Positions 13,589 through 23,087 of a stretch of 28,393 nt of DNA are shown here, in pieces (positions within the stretch are counted from its first letter, which is position 1; each line of letters opens with the position of its first letter). The translations under genes were made by a program, and so were the position numbers. The stretch is from assembly GCA_035574055.1 (NCBI GenBank), contig DATLZJ010000477.1, positions 1-28,393 on the forward strand, given 5' to 3'. This stretch comes from Caldilineaceae bacterium (GTDB lineage Bacteria; Chloroflexota; Anaerolineae; Caldilineales; Caldilineaceae). The notes under the pieces were generated by a model. It did not search any database. It was given only the letters and a program-made list of their open reading frames with translations, and was not told the origin of the DNA.

Positions 13589-16417
13589 ATGGATACACAA
13601 CTCTTTGTCGGACGAGAGGCCGAGCTGGCAGAGCTGCAAACGCACCTGGATAAGCTGCTGACCGGCCACGGTGGCATCTGTTTCGTGGCCGGCCAGGCCG
13701 GCAGCGGTAAGACCGCGCTGGTCCGCCACTTCTTGCAGCGGGCATTGACCCAGGCGCCGGATTTAGTGGTTGCAGGCGGCAGCGGCAACGCCCAAACGGG
13801 GATCGGCGACCCCTACCTTCCCTTTCGCGAGGCGTTGGCGCTACTCACCGGCGACATCGCCGCCAACCAGGCCGCAGGCAAGATCACCCTGGAGAGCGCG
13901 GGGCGGCTGCGCACAGTCATGGTGCGCGCCATCGAGGTGTTGGTCGAGGTCGCGCCCGAGCTGATCAATGTGCTGGTCCCCGGCGGCAAGCTGCTCGCCC
14001 ACATCGGCCAGCAGGTCGTCAAAAAGACCGGCTGGATGGAAAAGCTGGCTCGGTTGAGCCAGCGCACCGCGCTGCTGACCGGCGTCGCCGAGACCGCCAC
14101 CGAGCAGGTGCGGATCGTGGAAAAGTTCACGGCCTTTCTGCGCCAGTTGAGCAAGGAAGTACCCCTGATCCTCTTCTTCGACGACCTGCAATGGGCCGAC
14201 GCGGCCTCTATCAACCTGCTCTTCCATCTGGCGCGCAGTGTGGAGGACGACCGCATTCTGCTCATCGGCGCGTACCGCCCCAACGACGTGATGTTGGGGC
14301 GTCTGGGCCAGCGCCACCCCCTGGAGCCGGTGATCCTGGAGCTGACGCGCTACTTCGGCGATGTCACGGTCAACCTGGATGAGGTCCCGGAGGAGACCAA
14401 CCGCCGCTTTATTGATGCGCTGCTGGACGCGGAGCCGAACCGGCTCGGCCCCGATTTTCGCAACGCGCTCTTCCAGCAGACCGGCGGCCATGCGCTCTTC
14501 ACGGTGGAGCTGCTCCATGCCATGAAAAAGCGCGGGGACTTAACACGCGGGCCGGATGGCGCCTGGATCGCCAAAGAGAATCTGGACTGGAGTGCGTTGC
14601 CCGCCAAGGTCGAAGGGGTGATCGCCGAACGGATCGCCCGGCTCGATGACGAGCTGCGCGAGCTGCTGATGGTGGCGTCAGTCGAAGGCGAGGAGTTTAC
14701 CGCAGAGGTCGTCGCACGGGTAGAGGCCCTGGTCGAACGCGAGGCCATCCACCTGTTGAGCCAAGAGCTACAGCGGCGTCATGGGCTGATTGACGCTCAG
14801 GGCCTGGTGCGGATAGGTGGGCTGCGCCTCTCGCTCTTTCGCTTTGTTCACAGCCTGTTCCAGCAGTACCTCTACAATCACCTGGGCGAGGCCGAGCGCG
14901 TCTATCTCCATCGCGATATCGGCAGCGTGCTGGAGGAGCTGTTCGGCGCCCAGACCGACGATGTGGCGGCGCGCCTGGCGCGCCACTTCGAGCTGGCCGG
15001 CATCGCCGACAAGGCCGCCGGCTACCGGCTCCAGGCCGGCGTCCGGGCTTGCCGTATGTCGGCCCATGATGAGGCGGCGACGCATCTGCAACAGGGCCTG
15101 CGCCTGCTGGCCGATGTCCCCGCCGGCCCGGCGCGCGACCTGCTCGAGCTGCGCTTGCAGACCATGTTGGGCACCGCGCTGGTGGTGACCCACGGCTACG
15201 CCTCCTATGATGTGCAGCAGGCTTTTGCCCGCGCCCGCGAGCTGTGCAATAAGCTGGATGACCCCCAGGCTACGATCCCGGTCATCTTTGGACTGGGCGT
15301 TCACTACCTGGTCTCCGGCGAGCTGCACCATGCCGAGGAGCTGGGCAGCCAACTGCTCGAGCTGGCGCAAAAGGACAACGACACCGGCTTCGTACTGGGC
15401 GCGCGCCTCATCATGGGCGTGGCGGATATGTACCGCGGGCGGCTTGTCTCGGCACGCGCACAACTGGAACAGGCCGTGGTGGAGCTCGAGGTGGAGGCGC
15501 ATAGCAATCTGGCGCATCTGCAAGGGCAGGACCCGGTCGTCGCGGCGCTCGGTTTTCTGGGGCTGACGCTCTGGACGCTGGGCTATCCGGACCAGGCGCG
15601 GCGGCGCATCGAGGAGGGGCTGGCCTTGGCCCAGCGCATCGGCCATCCCTACACCTCGGCCTATATGAGCAGCGTTGCAACCTCCTTCTTCCTGATCCTG
15701 GGCGAGGAAGGCCGTTGCCGGCGCCAGGCGGAGGAGACGCTGGCGATCAGCCAGGAGCGGTACCCCCTGTGGCAAGCCACCACCACCATCGCCTTGGGCT
15801 GGCTCCAGGCGCGGCAGGGGCAGTTTGCGCAAGGGCTGGCCGCCATGGAGTCTGGATTGGCCTTGTGGGAGGCCAGCGGCGCATACACCTCTGCCCCCTA
15901 CTTCCGCGCCCATCTGGCCGAGGCTTATCTGCTGGCCCGGCGTCGCAGCGCCGGGCTGCGTGTCCTAGATGAGTCGTTCCGCTATACCGACCAGGGCTGG
16001 TGGCTGCCGGAGCAGCGCCGGCTCTACGCCGAATTCCTGCTGCTCGAAGCCGGCCACGAGGCGGAGGCCGAAAGCGAGCTGCGGCAAGCCCTGACGCTGG
16101 CGCAGGCGGCCCAGGCGCGGTCGCTGGCGCTGCGCGCCGCCATGAGCCTGGCGCGCTTGCTGGGCAACCAGGGCCGCGCCGCCGAAGGCCGCGAGCGACT
16201 GCTGGCCTGCTATGGCTGGTTCACCGAGGGGCTGGAGACCAACGACCTGCAAAACGCGCGCGACTTGCTGCGCACCCTGGATGAGAAGACGGCCGCGCCC
16301 AAGGACGCCATTGGGGACGCTGCACGCGCCGAAATCGCGACAGCGCTGGGACGGCCGGCTGATACAGTGGTCCACAGCCCGCCTATGATGCAGGCGACGC
16401 CGGTTGCGCTGATGTAA
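13589..16417 (+). CDS. STAND-class (AAA_16/COG3899-like) ATPase with C-terminal TPR-like helical repeats and no recognisable effector domain, 942 aa
   Basis: FVGRE.EL start, Walker A GQAGSGKT, Walker B LILFFDDLQWAD, LIGAYR, GGHALF (GxP-equivalent), LP..V..VI..RI.RL, and a helical C-terminus ending FTEGLETNDL..AR.LL as in kinase/cyclase-fused family members; GGAGGAG SD. Confidence 0.88.
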   Translation: MDTQLFVGREAELAELQTHLDKLLTGHGGICFVAGQAGSGKTALVRHFLQRALTQAPDLVVAGGSGNAQTGIGDPYLPFREALALLTGDIAANQAAGKITLESAGRLRTVMVRAIEVLVEVAPELINVLVPGGKLLAHIGQQVVKKTGWMEKLARLSQRTALLTGVAETATEQVRIVEKFTAFLRQLSKEVPLILFFDDLQWADAASINLLFHLARSVEDDRILLIGAYRPNDVMLGRLGQRHPLEPVILELTRYFGDVTVNLDEVPEETNRRFIDALLDAEPNRLGPDFRNALFQQTGGHALFTVELLHAMKKRGDLTRGPDGAWIAKENLDWSALPAKVEGVIAERIARLDDELRELLMVASVEGEEFTAEVVARVEALVEREAIHLLSQELQRRHGLIDAQGLVRIGGLRLSLFRFVHSLFQQYLYNHLGEAERVYLHRDIGSVLEELFGAQTDDVAARLARHFELAGIADKAAGYRLQAGVRACRMSAHDEAATHLQQGLRLLADVPAGPARDLLELRLQTMLGTALVVTHGYASYDVQQAFARARELCNKLDDPQATIPVIFGLGVHYLVSGELHHAEELGSQLLELAQKDNDTGFVLGARLIMGVADMYRGRLVSARAQLEQAVVELEVEAHSNLAHLQGQDPVVAALGFLGLTLWTLGYPDQARRRIEEGLALAQRIGHPYTSAYMSSVATSFFLILGEEGRCRRQAEETLAISQERYPLWQATTTIALGWLQARQGQFAQGLAAMESGLALWEASGAYTSAPYFRAHLAEAYLLARRRSAGLRVLDESFRYTDQGWWLPEQRRLYAEFLLLEAGHEAEAESELRQALTLAQAAQARSLALRAAMSLARLLGNQGRAAEGRERLLACYGWFTEGLETNDLQNARDLLRTLDEKTAAPKDAIGDAARAEIATALGRPADTVVHSPPMMQATPVALM

Positions 16418-16452: not shown

Positions 16453-16641
16453 CATAGCACCCGGGATGACCAGTTCTATCTTGACAAGCTGACCGGCTGG
16501 ATGGTGCGCGCCGACGTGAACCCCTATGGCGGCATGGTCTTTGACCCCAGCTTCTTTGTAGACTTCGGGTCCACTCGACCCCATCAAGTTCGCTTGGAGG
16601 GCGGCGATGCTTCCACTGACTCCTATTGCTATCCTTCTTAA
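16453..16641 (+). pseudogene. 3' remnant (about 62 codons) of a selenium-binding protein SBP56 / methanethiol oxidase family gene
   Basis: Manual translation gives HSTRDDQFYLDKLTGWMVRADVNPYGGMVFDPSFFVDFGSTRPHQVRLEGGDASTDSYCYPS*. This matches the SBP56 C-terminus pattern YSxWDxQFYP..l.GWMVk....P.GG...D..FFVDFG....HQVRL.GGDASSDSYCYP. No start or upstream SBP56 sequence is present. Confidence 0.85.
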
Positions 16642-17358
16642 CGCGGCGCACACCCTGCCGGAGCTGTTGCCCGCGCTGGGGGTGTGGCTGGCGATGCTGG
16701 GGTTTGGGGCCTATCACGGCCTCAACCCCGGCATGGGGTGGCTCTTTGCGCTGTCGCTGGGCCTACAACAGCGCAACGCGCGGGCCATCTGGACGGCGAT
16801 GGTTCCCATCGCGCTGGGCCACACGGCGGCATTGGCGGTTGTGGCGGCGTTGGCGCTGGTGGGCGCGCAGTTCATCTCAAGCGGCACGGCCCAGGCCATG
16901 ACCGCGCTGCTGTTGATCGGCTTTGGCGTCTACAAGGTCTTCAACTACTATCGCCACCCGCGCTGGGTGGGGATGCGCGTCGGGGGGCGCGACCTGCTCT
17001 GGTGGTCGTTCCTCATGGCGACGGCTCACGGGGCCGGGCTGATGATCGCGCCGGCGCTGTTGGGGATCGTAGACCGGCAGGCGGGCCTGGGCTACGCCGC
17101 CCACCACACCCACCTGGCCGCGGGGGCAGCATGGCGCTGGCGATTGCCGCCCACACCCTATCTATGCTGGTGGTGATGGCAGCCGTCGCCTGGGCAGTCT
17201 ACAAGTGGGTGGGGCTGGCGGTGTTGCGCAGCCGCTGGATCAACTTCGACCTGGTGTGGGCGGTGGCGCTGTTGGTGGTCGGCGTCATCGCCGCCGCTGG
17301 GATCATGGGCGACCTGGCGACGCCTGTCCAGGCGACCGGCGCCCTGCACCGGCGCTAG
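16607..17358 (+). pseudogene. Frameshifted His-motif membrane protein of the type usually encoded next to SBP56 genes (about 250 aa if restored)
   Basis: Frame 1 gives GAYHGLNPGMGWLFAL...PIALGH...WSFLMATAHGAGLM. The C-terminal half (AHTLSMLVVM...YKWVGL..LR..WINFDLVW) lies in another frame. One extra G in the G5 run at 17122-17126 joins them. GGAGG SD before ATG 16607. Confidence 0.8.
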
Positions 17359-17416: not shown

Positions 17417-17463
17417 CCGGCGGAGTCTGGTTCCACCCCCAGGCTCCGCCGGTTCCCCTTTTT
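17417..17463 (+). terminator. Intrinsic terminator after the membrane-protein gene
   Basis: 14-bp stem CCGGCGGAGTCTGG / CCAGGCTCCGCCGG (one G-U), 8-nt loop, followed by TTCCCCTTTTT. Confidence 0.7.
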
Positions 17464-17785
17464 GAGAGAGTGGACTGCTGGCTGGTGACTGCTGGATGTT
17501 GACACGCGTCGGAACGCGGGGAGACGGTGTGGCTGATGGCGGCGCGCCAGGAGACGCATCGGTATAGTTCCGCCTGTTGGAGACAGGTCCGGGCGTCCAT
17601 CTGGCGTTGGTGGATCGCACGCGCAAGGCGGGCAGCGCCGTTTGCGCTCATCTCCCTCCCTGGCATCTCGATAGAGAGCCGTTCTTTGCGCAGCCGGGCG
17701 CGCCGTAACGAGATAATAGACGCCTTCCCCTCCGGCGCTGGCACACCTTACCACAAGCATGCTCAAGATACATCGCGAGATACAC

Positions 17786-17814
17786 TTGCACAATGAATGA
17801 CTTGTTCCTATACT
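17786..17814 (+). promoter_or_regulatory. Sigma70-type promoter upstream of the MTase-HerA-NurA cassette
   Basis: TTGCAC-N17-TATACT, about 220 bp upstream of the MTase ATG. Confidence 0.6.
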
Positions 17815-18033
17815 ACCCCTAGCACCGCGTTCCATCTCAATATCTGGTGTGGGAGTAGCTGCGGCGGACTACCGGCGCAGCTCGGGCTACATCCCCCGAG
17901 CGCACTATACCGCCTCTGGTTCGCCTCTAATCCTTCGGACAGTCTATCACTCGTTTTGCAGCGCAGATATTACATGAAGCGTATAAGTTCCTCCACACAT
18001 GAACCAAGCTATAGCATAAAGAGCTAAATCGTC

Positions 18034-18858
18034 ATGTGTTATAAACCTATCAGATTACTACGTTACCCAGGTGGAAAGCAGCGATTACTAAGTAGTCTGC
18101 TTCCGTTGTTACCAAGTTCACATACAATAAGAGGTAACTTCGTTGAACCATTTGTTGGAGGTGCATCTGTCTTCTTTGCAGTGAATCCGGACAGAGCTAT
18201 CCTATCAGATATCAATGGAGAGTTAATCGAGCTGTACCAGGGGATACGGGACCATCCGCGAGATGTATGGGAAAAGTACACGTCGTTTCCAGCAAGCAGA
18301 GATGGATATTACAGCATCCGAAATGCTGAGGTATCTGCTCTAGATCCAGTTACAAAGGCTGCTCGGATTCTTTATCTAAATCGCACAAGCTATAAAGGAA
18401 TGTGGCGCTACAACTCGCGTGGTCAGTTTAACGTGGGTTATGGCGGTGAAAGCAGGAGATGGGTAATCAAAGAAGAAGATATTCTTCAGGCATCGTTGCG
18501 ACTACGCAAGGCTCATTTAGAGATTTCAGATTTTGAGCAGATAATCGACTCGGCCAGAGCTTCCGATTTCTTGTTCGTCGATCCGCCCTATAAACCTGGT
18601 GCAAGAGAACTTACCAATGATCACTACGTCTTCAGCCGATTCACATCTGAAGATCATCAACGGTTAGCGAGGGCACTTCAGAAAGCTTCAGGCAGAGGTG
18701 TTAAATGGGCAATGACAATATCTTCTCATCACGAGATGATCCAGTTATTTTCGTCTGAGTCTGTTTTCTTGTTAAAAGAAAATATCAGAAAACGTGAAAA
18801 TCATTGTGAGCAGCAAGGCGAAGCTCTAATCTGCAACTACAAGGTTAATCATCTATGA
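18034..18858 (+). CDS. Dam/D12-class (alpha-group) N6-adenine DNA methyltransferase, 274 aa
   Basis: RYPGGK (motif X), FVEPFVGGASVF (motif I), LSDINGELI (motif II), YLNRTSYKGMWRYNSRGQFNV (Dam TRD hairpin), FLFVDPPY (motif IV). Confidence 0.93.
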   Translation: MCYKPIRLLRYPGGKQRLLSSLLPLLPSSHTIRGNFVEPFVGGASVFFAVNPDRAILSDINGELIELYQGIRDHPRDVWEKYTSFPASRDGYYSIRNAEVSALDPVTKAARILYLNRTSYKGMWRYNSRGQFNVGYGGESRRWVIKEEDILQASLRLRKAHLEISDFEQIIDSARASDFLFVDPPYKPGARELTNDHYVFSRFTSEDHQRLARALQKASGRGVKWAMTISSHHEMIQLFSSESVFLLKENIRKRENHCEQQGEALICNYKVNHL

Positions 18859-20834
18859 AAGACTTCTTTGCAAAAGCAGCAATGCAGAATCACCCCCTGC
18901 GAGTTTTGCAGACGTTCTTGGACCAAGAGGCATCTAACGAAACAGCAAAGAAGTATGATGAGCTTCGTTTTGTTGGTTACGTATTAGATATTGGCTACGA
19001 TACGGTTACCATCATCACCTCCGATCCATTTAAAATCGCCGTAGGTGGCGTACCGAGAAACTCATTACTTATTATGGTTCCATCAGACTATAAGCAACTC
19101 CCGCCTCACTTCACGCTATTGCGTGTGCTTGAGGCGGCCCCTACACCCCTGTCTCAGGCAGTACAACAGACGTATTTTGAGCTTCAGAAGAAGTCCATGC
19201 CTGAACTAGATGTATTTACACAGAGTGAGCTGCAATGGGGTGCCCTCAGGACAGGTGTGCTAGGGATGTTTTATCCCCATCCTGAACAACAAAATGAGAT
19301 TGAGTTCTCAGGAGACCTGAATAATTTCGTCAGCGCGCACAAATACAGAGTCTATGCCCCTGATGACGCACTTCTTGACCTCATTGTCAATTCGTTAGTA
19401 CCATATCAAGACCGATTCCTGTTGGGCCAGCTCCGTCTTACCGAGTGCCGCTTGGGTTTGCCAAACAAACCAATGCGAGATGTGAAAGTATATGTATCAG
19501 TTCAAGACTTTATGGGAACGCGTACTGCATTATTTGGCAAAACACGGCTAGGCAAGAGCAATGTTGTCAAATTAATAGCCCAAAGCATAATCGAGGCTAC
19601 CGCCACTTCTCGGAACGTAGGTCAGCTAATCTTTGATATCAACGGCGAGTATGCAAATGATAATCCTCAAGACGGAAGCAAGTCACTACGAAGTGCATAT
19701 CCAGATCGATGTCAAGTTTACGCATTGTCACAAAAGAAGTACACACCTTCACGGCCTCTAAAGCTAAACTTCTACGAGCAACCAGATAGCGCCCACCGCA
19801 TCATCCGAAGTCTTCTAAACCAAGATGGAAAGTTGAGTTCAGTCTATGTAAATAGCTTTGCAAATGCTGAACTTCCGAGTCTCAGCGAAGTAAAGAAAAT
19901 GCCATCTGGAGGTGATCAGATCCGAGCAATTCGTAAAATTCAGTTTTTCTGGGCGATACTAAAGAAAGCTGGCTATCCAGTTGATGAGACCATTCTATTG
20001 AAAACCGTACCGGCTGGTAATGGCACTGGAGGATTTGATCCTGGCTTTGCCGGAAAACTACGAGATGAAGCATACCGTGAGATAAATAAAACATCTGCGC
20101 CATCTCATATTCAGACCTTAAATGACCTCTGCTTTGAGCTTGAGACTATACACCAATACTATCAGAGAAATCCCAACGATAAGCTTTTCACTACCTCGTC
20201 TGGAAAGCCTTTATTTGATCCAGACGACAAAGCTCTACTGGAATTCCTAAACCCATTACCTGGTCGAGCTGGGGTTAGTTATATCGTTCCTTATCGAATT
20301 TATCATGACTCGAATGCTGGTGACTTTGTGAAGGAGATCTTAACATTACTAGATAGTAGCGAAACTGTCATATTGGATTTAGGAAATGCCAATGAGGCAG
20401 TTATGCGATACTTCTCAAATGAATTATCTGTATCTGTGTTTCAGCATCAGCTGAAAAAATTCACAGAGAATGCACTCGGACAGCACTATATTCAATTGTA
20501 CCTTGAAGAGGCACATAACCTCTTTCCAAGCACTGATGAACCTACTGATACTTATGCCCGTTTTGCGAAGGAGGGCGCAAAATATCATATTGGTATGGTC
20601 TATTCAACTCAATCGCCCTCTACCGTCTATAAGGACCTTCTGGCTCAAACAGAGAATTTTTTCGTTGCCCATTTATCTTCAAGGGATGAGGTAAATGCTC
20701 TTGCCAGGCTTAACATCTCCTATGAAAGCCTTAAAGATGACATCCTTATGGCAAAGACACCTGGCTATATGAGGATGCTAACCCGATCACATCGTTTTGT
20801 TGTGCCTGTACAAGCCCGGAAATTTGAACCATAA
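18855..20834 (+). CDS. herA: HerA/DUF87-like FtsK-HerA superfamily ATPase, 659 aa
   Basis: N-terminal HAS-barrel-like beta segment (FVGYVLDIG), Walker A GKTRLGKS, IFDINGEY, Walker B YLEEAH, EGAKYHIGMVYSTQSPS; ATGA overlap with the MTase stop. Confidence 0.88.
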   Translation: MKDFFAKAAMQNHPLRVLQTFLDQEASNETAKKYDELRFVGYVLDIGYDTVTIITSDPFKIAVGGVPRNSLLIMVPSDYKQLPPHFTLLRVLEAAPTPLSQAVQQTYFELQKKSMPELDVFTQSELQWGALRTGVLGMFYPHPEQQNEIEFSGDLNNFVSAHKYRVYAPDDALLDLIVNSLVPYQDRFLLGQLRLTECRLGLPNKPMRDVKVYVSVQDFMGTRTALFGKTRLGKSNVVKLIAQSIIEATATSRNVGQLIFDINGEYANDNPQDGSKSLRSAYPDRCQVYALSQKKYTPSRPLKLNFYEQPDSAHRIIRSLLNQDGKLSSVYVNSFANAELPSLSEVKKMPSGGDQIRAIRKIQFFWAILKKAGYPVDETILLKTVPAGNGTGGFDPGFAGKLRDEAYREINKTSAPSHIQTLNDLCFELETIHQYYQRNPNDKLFTTSSGKPLFDPDDKALLEFLNPLPGRAGVSYIVPYRIYHDSNAGDFVKEILTLLDSSETVILDLGNANEAVMRYFSNELSVSVFQHQLKKFTENALGQHYIQLYLEEAHNLFPSTDEPTDTYARFAKEGAKYHIGMVYSTQSPSTVYKDLLAQTENFFVAHLSSRDEVNALARLNISYESLKDDILMAKTPGYMRMLTRSHRFVVPVQARKFEP

Positions 20835-20852
20835 TTCTGATGGAGACATGAT

Positions 20853-22157
20853 ATGCCCTATCAACAAGGAAATCGGTTGCAAGGGGAGTATGCTAGCCAT
20901 CTTGGACATCTTGAAGTCCTTAAGAGCGATCTCGTCAATCAACTTTGCCAGAGCTTTGAAAGTCGAGGAACCTCGGCAACTCCCTTTTCGGCCTCATGGG
21001 AATCAATATCCACTTCAGGGGTGCCGTTGAGCTTGGTATTTGGCGTTGATGGTTCAATGCAAGTTATTGAATCTGATGTGCCCCCATATAAAGCTCTGGC
21101 ATTTGTGAAAACGGCTCTATTAAGGCTCGATCAATACGCCTTAGCAAGGCTCGATAGCGAATACCCAAATCCATTTGCATTACGGGATATCTTGTCAGAT
21201 TCAGCTCTATATCACGCGACAGTTTTTCCCTTGCGAAATGTCACACTGTCCACGCTTAACAACTACGATGCAATTCGCCAGATCATTTTTGATTCAATTA
21301 GTGATAAATCTTTGGGTGGTGAAATCCTAGAAACTCTTAAGTGGATAGCTTACGAAAAATGGGATAGACAGCAAAAGCAACTCCCACTGTTCGAGTGTCC
21401 ACACTGCGAACAGGCAGTTGCTACATTGCCCTATGACGCTGAACAAGGAGACTGCAGAAAATGCGGTGGTCATCTGTTGCTTACGGACATGCTGGGATTC
21501 CACCAGATAATGAGTACAGACGCAGCTCCTAACAGTCTGGCCACCGACTATATGACAGTACATGAAACCTTGTTCGTGTTCACTGGAATCCGGCACTTCT
21601 GGGAGACAAACAAAAATATATTGAGGGACTCTCTATTTATAAAAGACGGGCCTCTTTCCATTCGCGCCCAATACTCCAAGCTAGTAGCACCAATTCGTCG
21701 ATTCCTAGAGTATGCCAGACGTAACGGATATGATATCCATATTCTTGGGCAGGAAAAGTCAGGTTTATTCGCGGAGCATCTTCACCTAATCCACCGGGAT
21801 GCTCCTAACATGAGTCTATTTCTACCAGGAGACAGCTATATAAAGGAACGCATCCAGAATCGACCAAATCGGGGTGCGCCATATGGAAAAGATACGAACT
21901 ACGGAGCCAAGGTCTTTGTAAAGTTGAGTGACTATCATCAACTGGTACTCAACATACCCACTGGCGACTTCAGTCCGAATCCAACTCTCGCAGATTTAAT
22001 TGGCGTTGAACGAATCTTTGCTACCTTACCTCATATACTGAGTAACAGATACGAAGGCGCGCTCCTACCAATTGAGTTGGCACACGGTATAGCCTCGCTC
22101 TCGACTTACCCATCGGCTCACATCTTGAAGGTCTTTGCCGAAAGTCATAGGAAATAA
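20853..22157 (+). CDS. nurA: NurA-like nuclease with a CxxC-x15-CxxC insertion, 434 aa
   Basis: NurA-type acidic motifs FGVDGS and FIKDGPL, GQEKSG (lgvvK-like) and the C-terminal PIELAH; directly downstream of a HerA-like gene. Confidence 0.78.
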   Translation: MPYQQGNRLQGEYASHLGHLEVLKSDLVNQLCQSFESRGTSATPFSASWESISTSGVPLSLVFGVDGSMQVIESDVPPYKALAFVKTALLRLDQYALARLDSEYPNPFALRDILSDSALYHATVFPLRNVTLSTLNNYDAIRQIIFDSISDKSLGGEILETLKWIAYEKWDRQQKQLPLFECPHCEQAVATLPYDAEQGDCRKCGGHLLLTDMLGFHQIMSTDAAPNSLATDYMTVHETLFVFTGIRHFWETNKNILRDSLFIKDGPLSIRAQYSKLVAPIRRFLEYARRNGYDIHILGQEKSGLFAEHLHLIHRDAPNMSLFLPGDSYIKERIQNRPNRGAPYGKDTNYGAKVFVKLSDYHQLVLNIPTGDFSPNPTLADLIGVERIFATLPHILSNRYEGALLPIELAHGIASLSTYPSAHILKVFAESHRK

Positions 22158-22248
22158 CAAATGTTCTGTGCATCCCTTTCATATTGGCTTAGGCTAGGCA
22201 CCCTGCTCACCTAGGTGATATTCATAACCTTCTCCACCTACACACGTT

Positions 22249-23031
22249 CTACTTCCCCAACAGGTCATCGCTGTGGATCGTCGGGCACCAGAATTTTTCG
22301 ATGTAGCTGACGACCAACTTCGTGCCTTCGTCGTGGGAGACGTAGGGGGCGCGGGCCGGGTTGTACATGGCGTCGGTCAGGTCGCGCACGAGGGCGATGT
22401 TGACGCCCCACTGCACCATCTGCTTGATGCCAAAGGAGCGGTTGAGGATGCACCGGTTGGTGTGCACGCCCATCAACACCACCTGGCGGATGCCCATCTG
22501 CTGGATGAAGTTGTAAATCTCCTGGCCGCTGTCGGAAATGCCGTCTCGGCTGTGGTCAATGTCTATCGCCGGGTGCTGCCGCGTCCAGACGCGCATCGCC
22601 TCGGTCTCGCCTGTGTCCGACCCCTCATCCGAATCGTCAATGGGCAGCGGCGGCGCAGGCCGGTCCGCCTCCGCCGGGGGCGAAATGTAGGGCGCGGCGC
22701 GCATCCGGCGGCGGGCGGGCGTCTCGGCGTAATAGCTCATGGTCTCCGAAGGCGCATGGATGATATAGACCCCCTGGGCGCGCGCTGCATGGAGCACCTC
22801 GTTCATGCGCGGGGCCATAGCATCCACCCGCTCGGCCGCGCCCCGGCTCCAATGGTTGTCCCACATGTCACACACCACCACCGCCACCTGGGCCGCAGGG
22901 ATGGTGCGCCGCACGATCTCCTCGCGCCAGAGGTTATGGCCGCCGGCGTCCTGGATCAAATAGGAGCGGCGAAAGTGAAACAACAACTGGCCGGCGTAGT
23001 CCACCCCACGGCTCTCCAACCCTTCGTCCAT
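22249..23031 (-). CDS. Isochorismatase-family cysteine hydrolase, 260 aa
   Basis: VVVCDMWD (catalytic Asp), IIHAPS, VLMGVHTNRC (Cys nucleophile region), RDLTDAMY; GGAGGAG SD. Confidence 0.85.
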   Translation of the reverse strand: MDEGLESRGVDYAGQLLFHFRRSYLIQDAGGHNLWREEIVRRTIPAAQVAVVVCDMWDNHWSRGAAERVDAMAPRMNEVLHAARAQGVYIIHAPSETMSYYAETPARRRMRAAPYISPPAEADRPAPPLPIDDSDEGSDTGETEAMRVWTRQHPAIDIDHSRDGISDSGQEIYNFIQQMGIRQVVLMGVHTNRCILNRSFGIKQMVQWGVNIALVRDLTDAMYNPARAPYVSHDEGTKLVVSYIEKFWCPTIHSDDLLGK

Positions 23032-23087
23032 CTCAACTCCTCCCTATATATCAACCGGCATCGGCAACAAGTCGTTGCATAGGGGCC

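Follow-up and report, generated by a model that had tools for sequence, protein, structure and literature searches.

We analysed a window of 28,393 nucleotides (nt) from a Caldilineaceae metagenome-assembled genome (MAG; GCA_035574055.1, contig DATLZJ010000477.1, positions 1 to 28,393) and found three adjacent genes (18034-22157) that are likely to form a defence cassette resembling a restriction-modification (R-M) system. They encode a predicted Dam-family DNA methyltransferase (MTase), a predicted HerA-like ring ATPase and a predicted nuclease of the NurA fold. An R-M-like role had been suggested by an earlier reading of the DNA made without database searches (henceforth the sequence-only reading). 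It gains computational support because the three genes stay together in 65 of 68 testable loci, their products co-diverge and distant homologues of the ATPase-nuclease pair are linked to PF01555 methylases; the foreign GC content of the cassette agrees with it. We infer that the cassette acts against phages or plasmids. It is probably a methylation-based relative, or counterpart, of the TdpABC system.

Gene 1 (18034-18858, + strand) is an open reading frame (ORF) of 274 amino acids (aa) that we assign, from its profile matches, to the D12/Dam class of N6-adenine (m6A) DNA MTases. It matched PF02086 (6.6e-46, 157.5 bits, cut-off 22) and the TIGR00571 dam model (185.1 bits, cut-off 114.85), and it carries the AdoMet motif I EPFVGG (18145-18162, residues 38-43) and the catalytic motif IV DPPY (18580-18591, residues 183-186). 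The best solved relatives are DpnM (4e-37), EcoDam (2e-24) and then T4 Dam, all GATC enzymes. The protein has the size of the stand-alone enzymes DpnM and EcoDam, with no additional docking domain. Its target-reading hairpin, YKGMWR (18391-18408), departs from canonical Dam. At the positions that reportedly contact GATC in EcoDam (K9, N120, L122, R124 and P134; Horton et al. 2006), alignment to EcoDam and DpnM places R, K, M, R and G.

Gene 2 (18855-20834, + strand, 659 aa) is predicted to encode a TdpA-like ring ATPase of the HerA/FtsK superfamily. It matched Pfam DUF87 (PF01935; 2.2e-14, 54.5 bits, cut-off 23.2) and contains a Walker A motif (GKTRLGKS, 19536-19559) and a Walker B motif (LEEAH, 20502-20516). 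Residues 1-205 structurally match the N-termini of DUF87/HAS-barrel clusters among atlas structures (TM 0.55-0.89), which points to an ordinary HAS barrel as the N-terminal domain. The best match in the Protein Data Bank (PDB) is TdpA (8wet_A, 3.2e-25), the aligned parts being the Walker A region and the last 156 residues. PADLOC HerA models matched down to 7.7e-21 and the PADLOC mad8 model at 6.9e-11. Scores were far below the cut-offs of the NCBIfam equivalogs, both for repair HerA (NF040819/NF040937; 27-30 bits versus cut-offs of 800-970) and for the anti-phage Sir2/DUF4297 HerA proteins (NF042943/NF042944; up to 57 bits versus a cut-off of 800).

Gene 3 (20853-22157, + strand, 434 aa) has no family match in Pfam, NCBIfam, PADLOC or PHROGs, and the Pfam NurA model gave no match even at E ≤ 10. 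Searches with the single sequence and with two profiles against Pfam (to E 10), NCBIfam, PADLOC, PHROGs and the PDB returned zinc-ribbon noise at most. An AlphaFold2 model built on a diverse alignment of 59 sequences reached a pLDDT of 92.1 and a pTM of 0.90; an earlier model, built on 22 close homologues, had a pLDDT of 69.6 and left residues 67-130 disordered. Foldseek matched the model to TdpB (1.1e-9), D. radiodurans NurA (8.5e-6), TM1739 (9e-5) and P. furiosus NurA (1e-4). VIA-align, which is independent of Foldseek, also placed TdpB on top (Z 18.8 across 308 residues), followed by the NurA-family structures of S. solfataricus NurA (2ygk, Z 15.0), TM1739 (1zup, 11.4), DrNurA (7f6d_G, 11.3) and TkNurA (9x1l_G, 10.5); Endonuclease V and Argonaute PIWI scored at most 8.5. 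Since TdpB and NurA are the top structural matches, the name NurA given by the sequence-only reading is correct at the level of the fold, although every sequence library was silent. The modelled structure thus points to a NurA-fold (RNase H-like) nuclease whose nearest relative is TdpB.

Residues D66, G67, D212, E238, D265 and E301 of gene 3 are invariant or at least 90% conserved across 59 homologues with identities down to 21%. Direct reading places three of the acidic motifs at 21045-21056 (VDGS, D66), 21642-21656 (KDGPL, D265) and 21750-21764 (QEKSG, E301), all on the + strand. Judging from strand positions in the model, the conserved acidic residues may be metal ligands. The protein also carries an inserted four-cysteine zinc ribbon (CPHC, 21396-21407; CRKC, 21453-21464), and three of its four cysteines (C182, C185 and C201) are invariant or nearly so in the same 59 homologues. 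All three motifs pointed out by the sequence-only reading (DPPY, Walker A and DGS) were located; with three open frames and every motif found, this copy of the cassette appears to be intact.

We sought related loci with an alignment of close homologues and counted linkage in the 68 loci that have enough upstream DNA. The expected co-occurrence was borne out: MTase, HerA and NurA-like genes stand in the same order in 65 of these 68 loci. Cassette genes mostly overlap or closely abut, and a -4 overlap between MTase and HerA defines the largest group. The window itself conforms, since ORF coordinates and sequence show three co-oriented genes with an ATGA overlap between MTase and HerA (18855-18858) and an 18-nt spacer between HerA and gene 3, as had been described; direct reading also places a GGAG 9 nt before the gene 3 ATG.

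The cassette is widespread. Close relatives occur in 135 GTDB species genomes, which represent over 20 named groups of bacteria and archaea, and lineages with the cassette include uncultured Saccharibacteria, Heimdallarchaeota and Methanoperedens. A word-indexed search for gene 3 returned over 1,760 homologues (65-73% identity), and an exhaustive search returned 587 clusters at 50% identity; the sources of the homologues include WOR-3, Rectinema, Poribacteria, CPR3, Nitrospirae, Dehalococcoidia, Nitrososphaeraceae and Methanophagales. Closer to the host, the cassette is single-copy in its own MAG, was not found in eight same-genus genomes, and has distant homologues only, in 3 of 24 genomes of the same family.

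The composition of the cassette is foreign. Its GC content is 0.41-0.48 (18001-22000) versus 0.59-0.69 on both sides, as the sequence-only reading had noted, and related cassettes are usually GC-poorer than their flanks too (mean 0.416 versus 0.478). These flanks vary between genomes, and DNA similarity between the window and other cassettes is confined to the coding regions (18126-22149). In each of the five same-genus genomes compared (G002-G005 and G007), the genes flanking the cassette (16456-17334 and 22249-23042) fall on separate contigs, with no nearby synteny, and therefore the cassette lies in a variable region. No empty insertion site or target duplication could be defined in five same-genus genomes, and no direct or inverted repeats were found around the cassette. 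Together, the comparisons show a patchy, horizontal distribution of the cassette; this copy was probably acquired horizontally.

The three proteins diverge together. Mean pairwise identity is lowest for the MTase (0.49), higher for the NurA-like protein (0.57) and highest for HerA (0.62), and across locus pairs the values for the three proteins are correlated (r 0.71-0.77). We read MTase classes from 56 aligned full cassettes and from the window. Class 1 (50 of the 56, plus the window) has the motifs LRYPGGK, (F/Y)KGMWR and FNVGYGG and the R/K/M/R/G signature with minor variants. Class 2 (6 of the 56: L042, L043, L046, L048, L060 and L073) has LKWAGGK, WNGLYR and FNVP and the canonical Dam/DpnM contacts K, N, L, R and P. 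These six class 2 loci form a single clade with support 1.0 both in the HerA tree and in the NurA-like tree.

More distant ATPase-nuclease pairs (NurA-like 23-27% and HerA about 30% identity), found in three genomes of the host family, adjoin PF01555 (N6_N4, beta-class) methylases at L092:10326-11321 (- strand), L093:3892-4893 (+ strand) and L094:5814-6962 (+ strand); the methylase overlaps HerA in two of the three. The next gene at L092 encodes a Schlafen-type helicase. Another distant homologue pair, at 33% identity, adjoins a DpnII system. In a temperate Vibrio phage (10N.286.55.C4_PE001; L106, 1309-5750), the region between integrase and excisionase holds HerA and NurA-like genes and, in convergent orientation, a Type II MTase. 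Such repeated linkage of one motor-nuclease pair to varied DNA-modification genes is characteristic, at the level of gene neighbourhoods, of a restriction arm whose modification partners can be swapped.

TdpABC, a system of thermophiles (An et al. 2025, Nat Chem Biol, PMID 39820821), is described as a phosphorothioate (PT)-based R-M system with the consensus GpsATC, in which TdpC alone makes the mark (PMC12914056), and TdpAB has been reported as anti-phage (PMC12914056, PMC13223576). Among solved structures, TdpA (TdpAB structures 8wet, 8wfd and 8y1k) is closest to gene 2 in sequence, TdpB is the top structural match of gene 3, and in both systems a single modification gene accompanies the genes for a ring ATPase and a NurA-fold nuclease, three genes in all. 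The reported Tdp motif is GpsATC, and the MTase of the cassette belongs to a family of GATC methylases. There are differences too. The modification gene is a D12-class m6A MTase here and the PT-forming TdpC in Tdp; the D12 MTase is the only linked modification gene here and in the 65 of 68 loci, although TdpC itself was not searched by sequence. At 434 aa, gene 3 exceeds TdpB (358 aa) by 76 aa, and no sequence similarity between the two could be detected; HerA exceeds TdpA by 73 aa. Relatives of the cassette are spread over many phyla and are not limited to extreme thermophiles. Sensing of a base methyl cannot simply copy sensing of a backbone sulfur.

By homology, the cassette would work as follows. 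The Dam-family MTase would mark host DNA with N6-methyladenine at a short motif. The HerA-like ring would thread DNA and the NurA-fold nuclease would dock on the ring, so that unmarked DNA would be pumped and degraded processively, as proposed from the homology to TdpA6-TdpB2 acting on PT-free DNA. The TdpA hexamer and TdpB are reportedly able to translocate on and degrade PT-free DNA, and the PT sulfur is said to interfere with the backbone contacts of TdpA in the pore (both An et al. 2025). Self DNA could be spared in one of two ways: methylation may block translocation or the nuclease, as PT does for TdpAB, or the methylase may be the site-reading subunit, as in Type I/III systems. The site-reading scheme is somewhat favoured by translational coupling, by the co-divergence of MTase and motor and by the variety of marks in sister clades.

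Several observations weigh against an R-M-like cassette of this kind. A base methyl in the major groove is not obviously readable by backbone contacts of the TdpA type, which leaves the self/non-self step hypothetical. The similarity of gene 3 to TdpB is one of fold, with none found at the sequence level, profiles included. The cassette has 16 GATC sites (15.6 expected) and the remainder of the window 119 (81.7 expected), so GATC is depleted in neither. PADLOC-DB v2 holds no model for gene 3 and no system with the MTase/HerA/NurA composition. Enrichment in defence islands had been proposed as a check; many relatives lie among housekeeping genes, although, in favour of the R-M-like reading, some adjoin MmeI-type, Type I HsdR or DpnII R-M genes. 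Finally, there are copies without a methylase. Three of the 68 loci depart from the triad (L026, L027 and L045): L026 (7001-8329) has a solo, intact NurA-like gene, and L045 (3015-6366) has a broken HerA and no Dam-type MTase. L027 (6998-8197) is a pseudogene, a NurA-like gene split in two, with neither HerA nor MTase. A plasmid of Tolypothrix sp. PCC 7910 (L105, 2635-9338) carries an HTH (helix-turn-helix) regulator and a DUF87 and 'NurA' pair with no methylase. This pair is followed by an 816-aa protein with an exonuclease domain, and PGAP names the nuclease a double-strand break repair NurA.

Evenly balanced, in our view, is whether the cassette belongs to a distinct and widespread class of ATP-dependent R-M systems, in which a HerA-ring/NurA-fold shredder serves under base methylation (m6A in this cassette, the products of other methylase classes in sister clades) by a mechanism unlike that of TdpAB, TdpABC being a thermophilic offshoot. 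In that case the mark could be read by the nuclease's conserved zinc ribbon, or the MTase could act as a licensing site reader.

An alternative, which we hold as a tentative second choice, follows the Type I/III plan: the MTase would be the specificity subunit that, at an unmethylated site, recruits or licenses a HerA/NurA-like machine that never reads the methyl group. The translational coupling of MTase and HerA (ATGA here, the -4 overlap in the largest group of loci) speaks for this arrangement, as does the co-variation of MTase class with the HerA/NurA-like clade. The pair occurs with D12 class 1, D12 class 2 and PF01555 methylases, and with PT in Tdp, a range that a single sensor in the pore explains poorly. 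No other sequence-reading domain was seen, the N-terminus of HerA being an ordinary HAS barrel. The dimensions of the MTase count the other way, as it is DpnM/EcoDam-sized and has no extra domain for docking. TdpAB is also said to function without TdpC in the complex (An et al. 2025).

It is improbable that the cassette is instead a purely selfish addiction module that persists through post-segregational killing, in which loss of methylation would expose the chromosome to HerA/NurA-like degradation and invaders would meet no meaningful barrier. Its extremely wide spread at high identity, its minimal mobile form (three ORFs without conserved ends) and the degraded copies (the split gene of L027, the broken HerA of L045), which are usual for R-M addiction modules, would all suit such an element. 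Classical R-M systems can, though, combine defence with addiction, anti-phage activity is reported for the homologous TdpAB (PMC12914056, PMC13223576), and the prophage-borne relative sits in the usual accessory (moron) position between integrase and excisionase. An addiction role is thus compatible with defence rather than opposed to it.

We give very little credence to a repair HerA-NurA end-resection pair of the archaeal/Deinococcus kind beside an orphan Dam of regulation or mismatch repair: a NurA fold with a HerA partner is a hallmark of the repair machine, and PGAP annotates distant homologues on plasmids as 'DNA double-strand break repair nuclease NurA', but we rejected this identity because the proteins miss the repair equivalogs and Pfam NurA, the pair is linked to a methylase in 65 of 68 loci and to another methylase family in distant homologues, no Mre11/Rad50 was seen among the scanned neighbours, and the cassette looks mobile (foreign GC, single-copy, not found in eight same-genus genomes, with copies at 52-69% identity in distant phyla and archaea).

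The end-resection proteins of archaea and Deinococcus (PDB 2ygk, 3tai, 7f6d and 9x1l) share with the cassette the NurA fold (Z 10.5-15.0), an adjacent gene for a HerA-type ATPase and the DGS aspartate; they differ in that the cassette is methylase-linked, mobile, foreign in composition and without mre11/rad50 linkage, and in that its proteins miss Pfam NurA and the NCBIfam HerA repair equivalogs. Sir2-HerA and DUF4297-HerA (PDB 8j4u/8su9, 8xau, 9c1m and 8wiv) likewise couple a ring ATPase to an effector, and their PADLOC/NCBIfam models match gene 2 weakly (e-21 to e-8). Their effectors are Sir2 or the Cap4-like DUF4297, whereas the predicted effector here is a NurA-fold nuclease, and they lack a methyltransferase: instead of marking self DNA, they deplete NAD or trigger abortive infection. 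We rejected membership in either system on the score (57 versus 800 bits), the different effector and the MTase of the cassette. The motor-nuclease pair of the HerA-NurA type seen by the sequence-only reading is supported; its choice of relatives needs refining, as the nearest characterized ones are TdpA/TdpB and not repair HerA-NurA, Sir2-HerA or DUF4297-HerA.

MADS (mad1-mad8 of Pseudomonas aeruginosa) separates self from non-self by m6A and ATPase-nuclease modules (PMC13662399), and gene 2 matches its PADLOC mad8 model. Among the eight MADS genes are kinases and an OLD-like MAD3/MAD4 module; we rejected a MADS fragment because the cassette has three genes and no PADLOC model, mad included, matches gene 3. 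The DpnII system (DpnM plus R.DpnII) is also a compact mobile cassette of overlapping genes, and its DpnM is the most similar to our MTase; the cassette differs in having no recognizable PD-(D/E)XK or HNH endonuclease, and its cleavage would be ATP-driven and processive, not site-specific. The sequence-only reading knew of no characterized system of this exact composition, and none was found in PADLOC-DB v2 or in the literature, where searches of HerA/NurA with methyltransferase, defence or R-M returned no paper on an MTase/HerA/NurA system. A 2026 review of NurA mentions distant bacterial NurA-like sequences of undetermined function (PMC13748450).

The surroundings of the cassette contain few recognizable partners. 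A leader 5' of the MTase (17740-18033, + strand) is without coding evidence, and GC content falls across it from 0.59 (17501-18000) to 0.44 (18001-18500). A 76-aa ORF in the leader (17797-18027) is not conserved among related loci, and no conserved fourth gene or C-protein was found. A single promoter had been predicted for the cassette, which our analysis does not support: the AT-rich stretch contains 14 promoter-like matches versus 7.7 ± 3.3 in shuffled sequences, one of them (17787-17814) in the leader. At the right junction (22158-22248), where no terminator-like site was found, a 91-nt spacer precedes a convergent isochorismatase-family gene (22249-23031, - strand). The other neighbours in the window are a STAND/AAA_16-TPR ATPase, ORFs without a family match and ThuA. 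Neither Mre11/Rad50 nor a recognizable restriction endonuclease was found among the scanned neighbours, in agreement with the sequence-only reading.

The STAND-type ATPase (942 aa, 13589-16417, + strand) lies about 1.6 kb upstream of the cassette, has AAA_16 and MalT-like TPR domains and a weak BrxC/BrxD match at its N-terminus, and may also be part of a conflict system. A near-perfect 14-bp inverted repeat followed by a T-rich run (17417-17452) looks like the terminator of the upstream ORF that ends at 17358. Clustering of neighbours revealed no shared flanking family near related cassettes except one gene in three loci. This gene, of about 920-970 aa, directly follows the NurA-like gene on the same strand in three unrelated genomes (L043:8318-11224, L055:8320-11223 and L070:8377-11142). 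It encodes a fusion of a UvrD helicase and a PD-(D/E)XK nuclease in L043 and L055 according to Pfam, and BLASTP groups the L070 protein with both. The gene may represent an optional fourth member of the cassette or a neighbouring defence gene.

The cassette is not in PADLOC-DB v2, and standard annotation labels its nuclease 'hypothetical' or repair 'NurA'. If our reading is true, a compact three-gene immune module is present across a very wide range of bacteria and archaea, and 'double-strand break repair' annotations on mobile elements would be corrected. The HerA-NurA end-resection machine would more than once have been put to use as a processive restriction arm, under m6A, other methylations and phosphorothioate. 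This would raise the question of how a ring translocase that grips the DNA backbone distinguishes methylated from unmethylated DNA.

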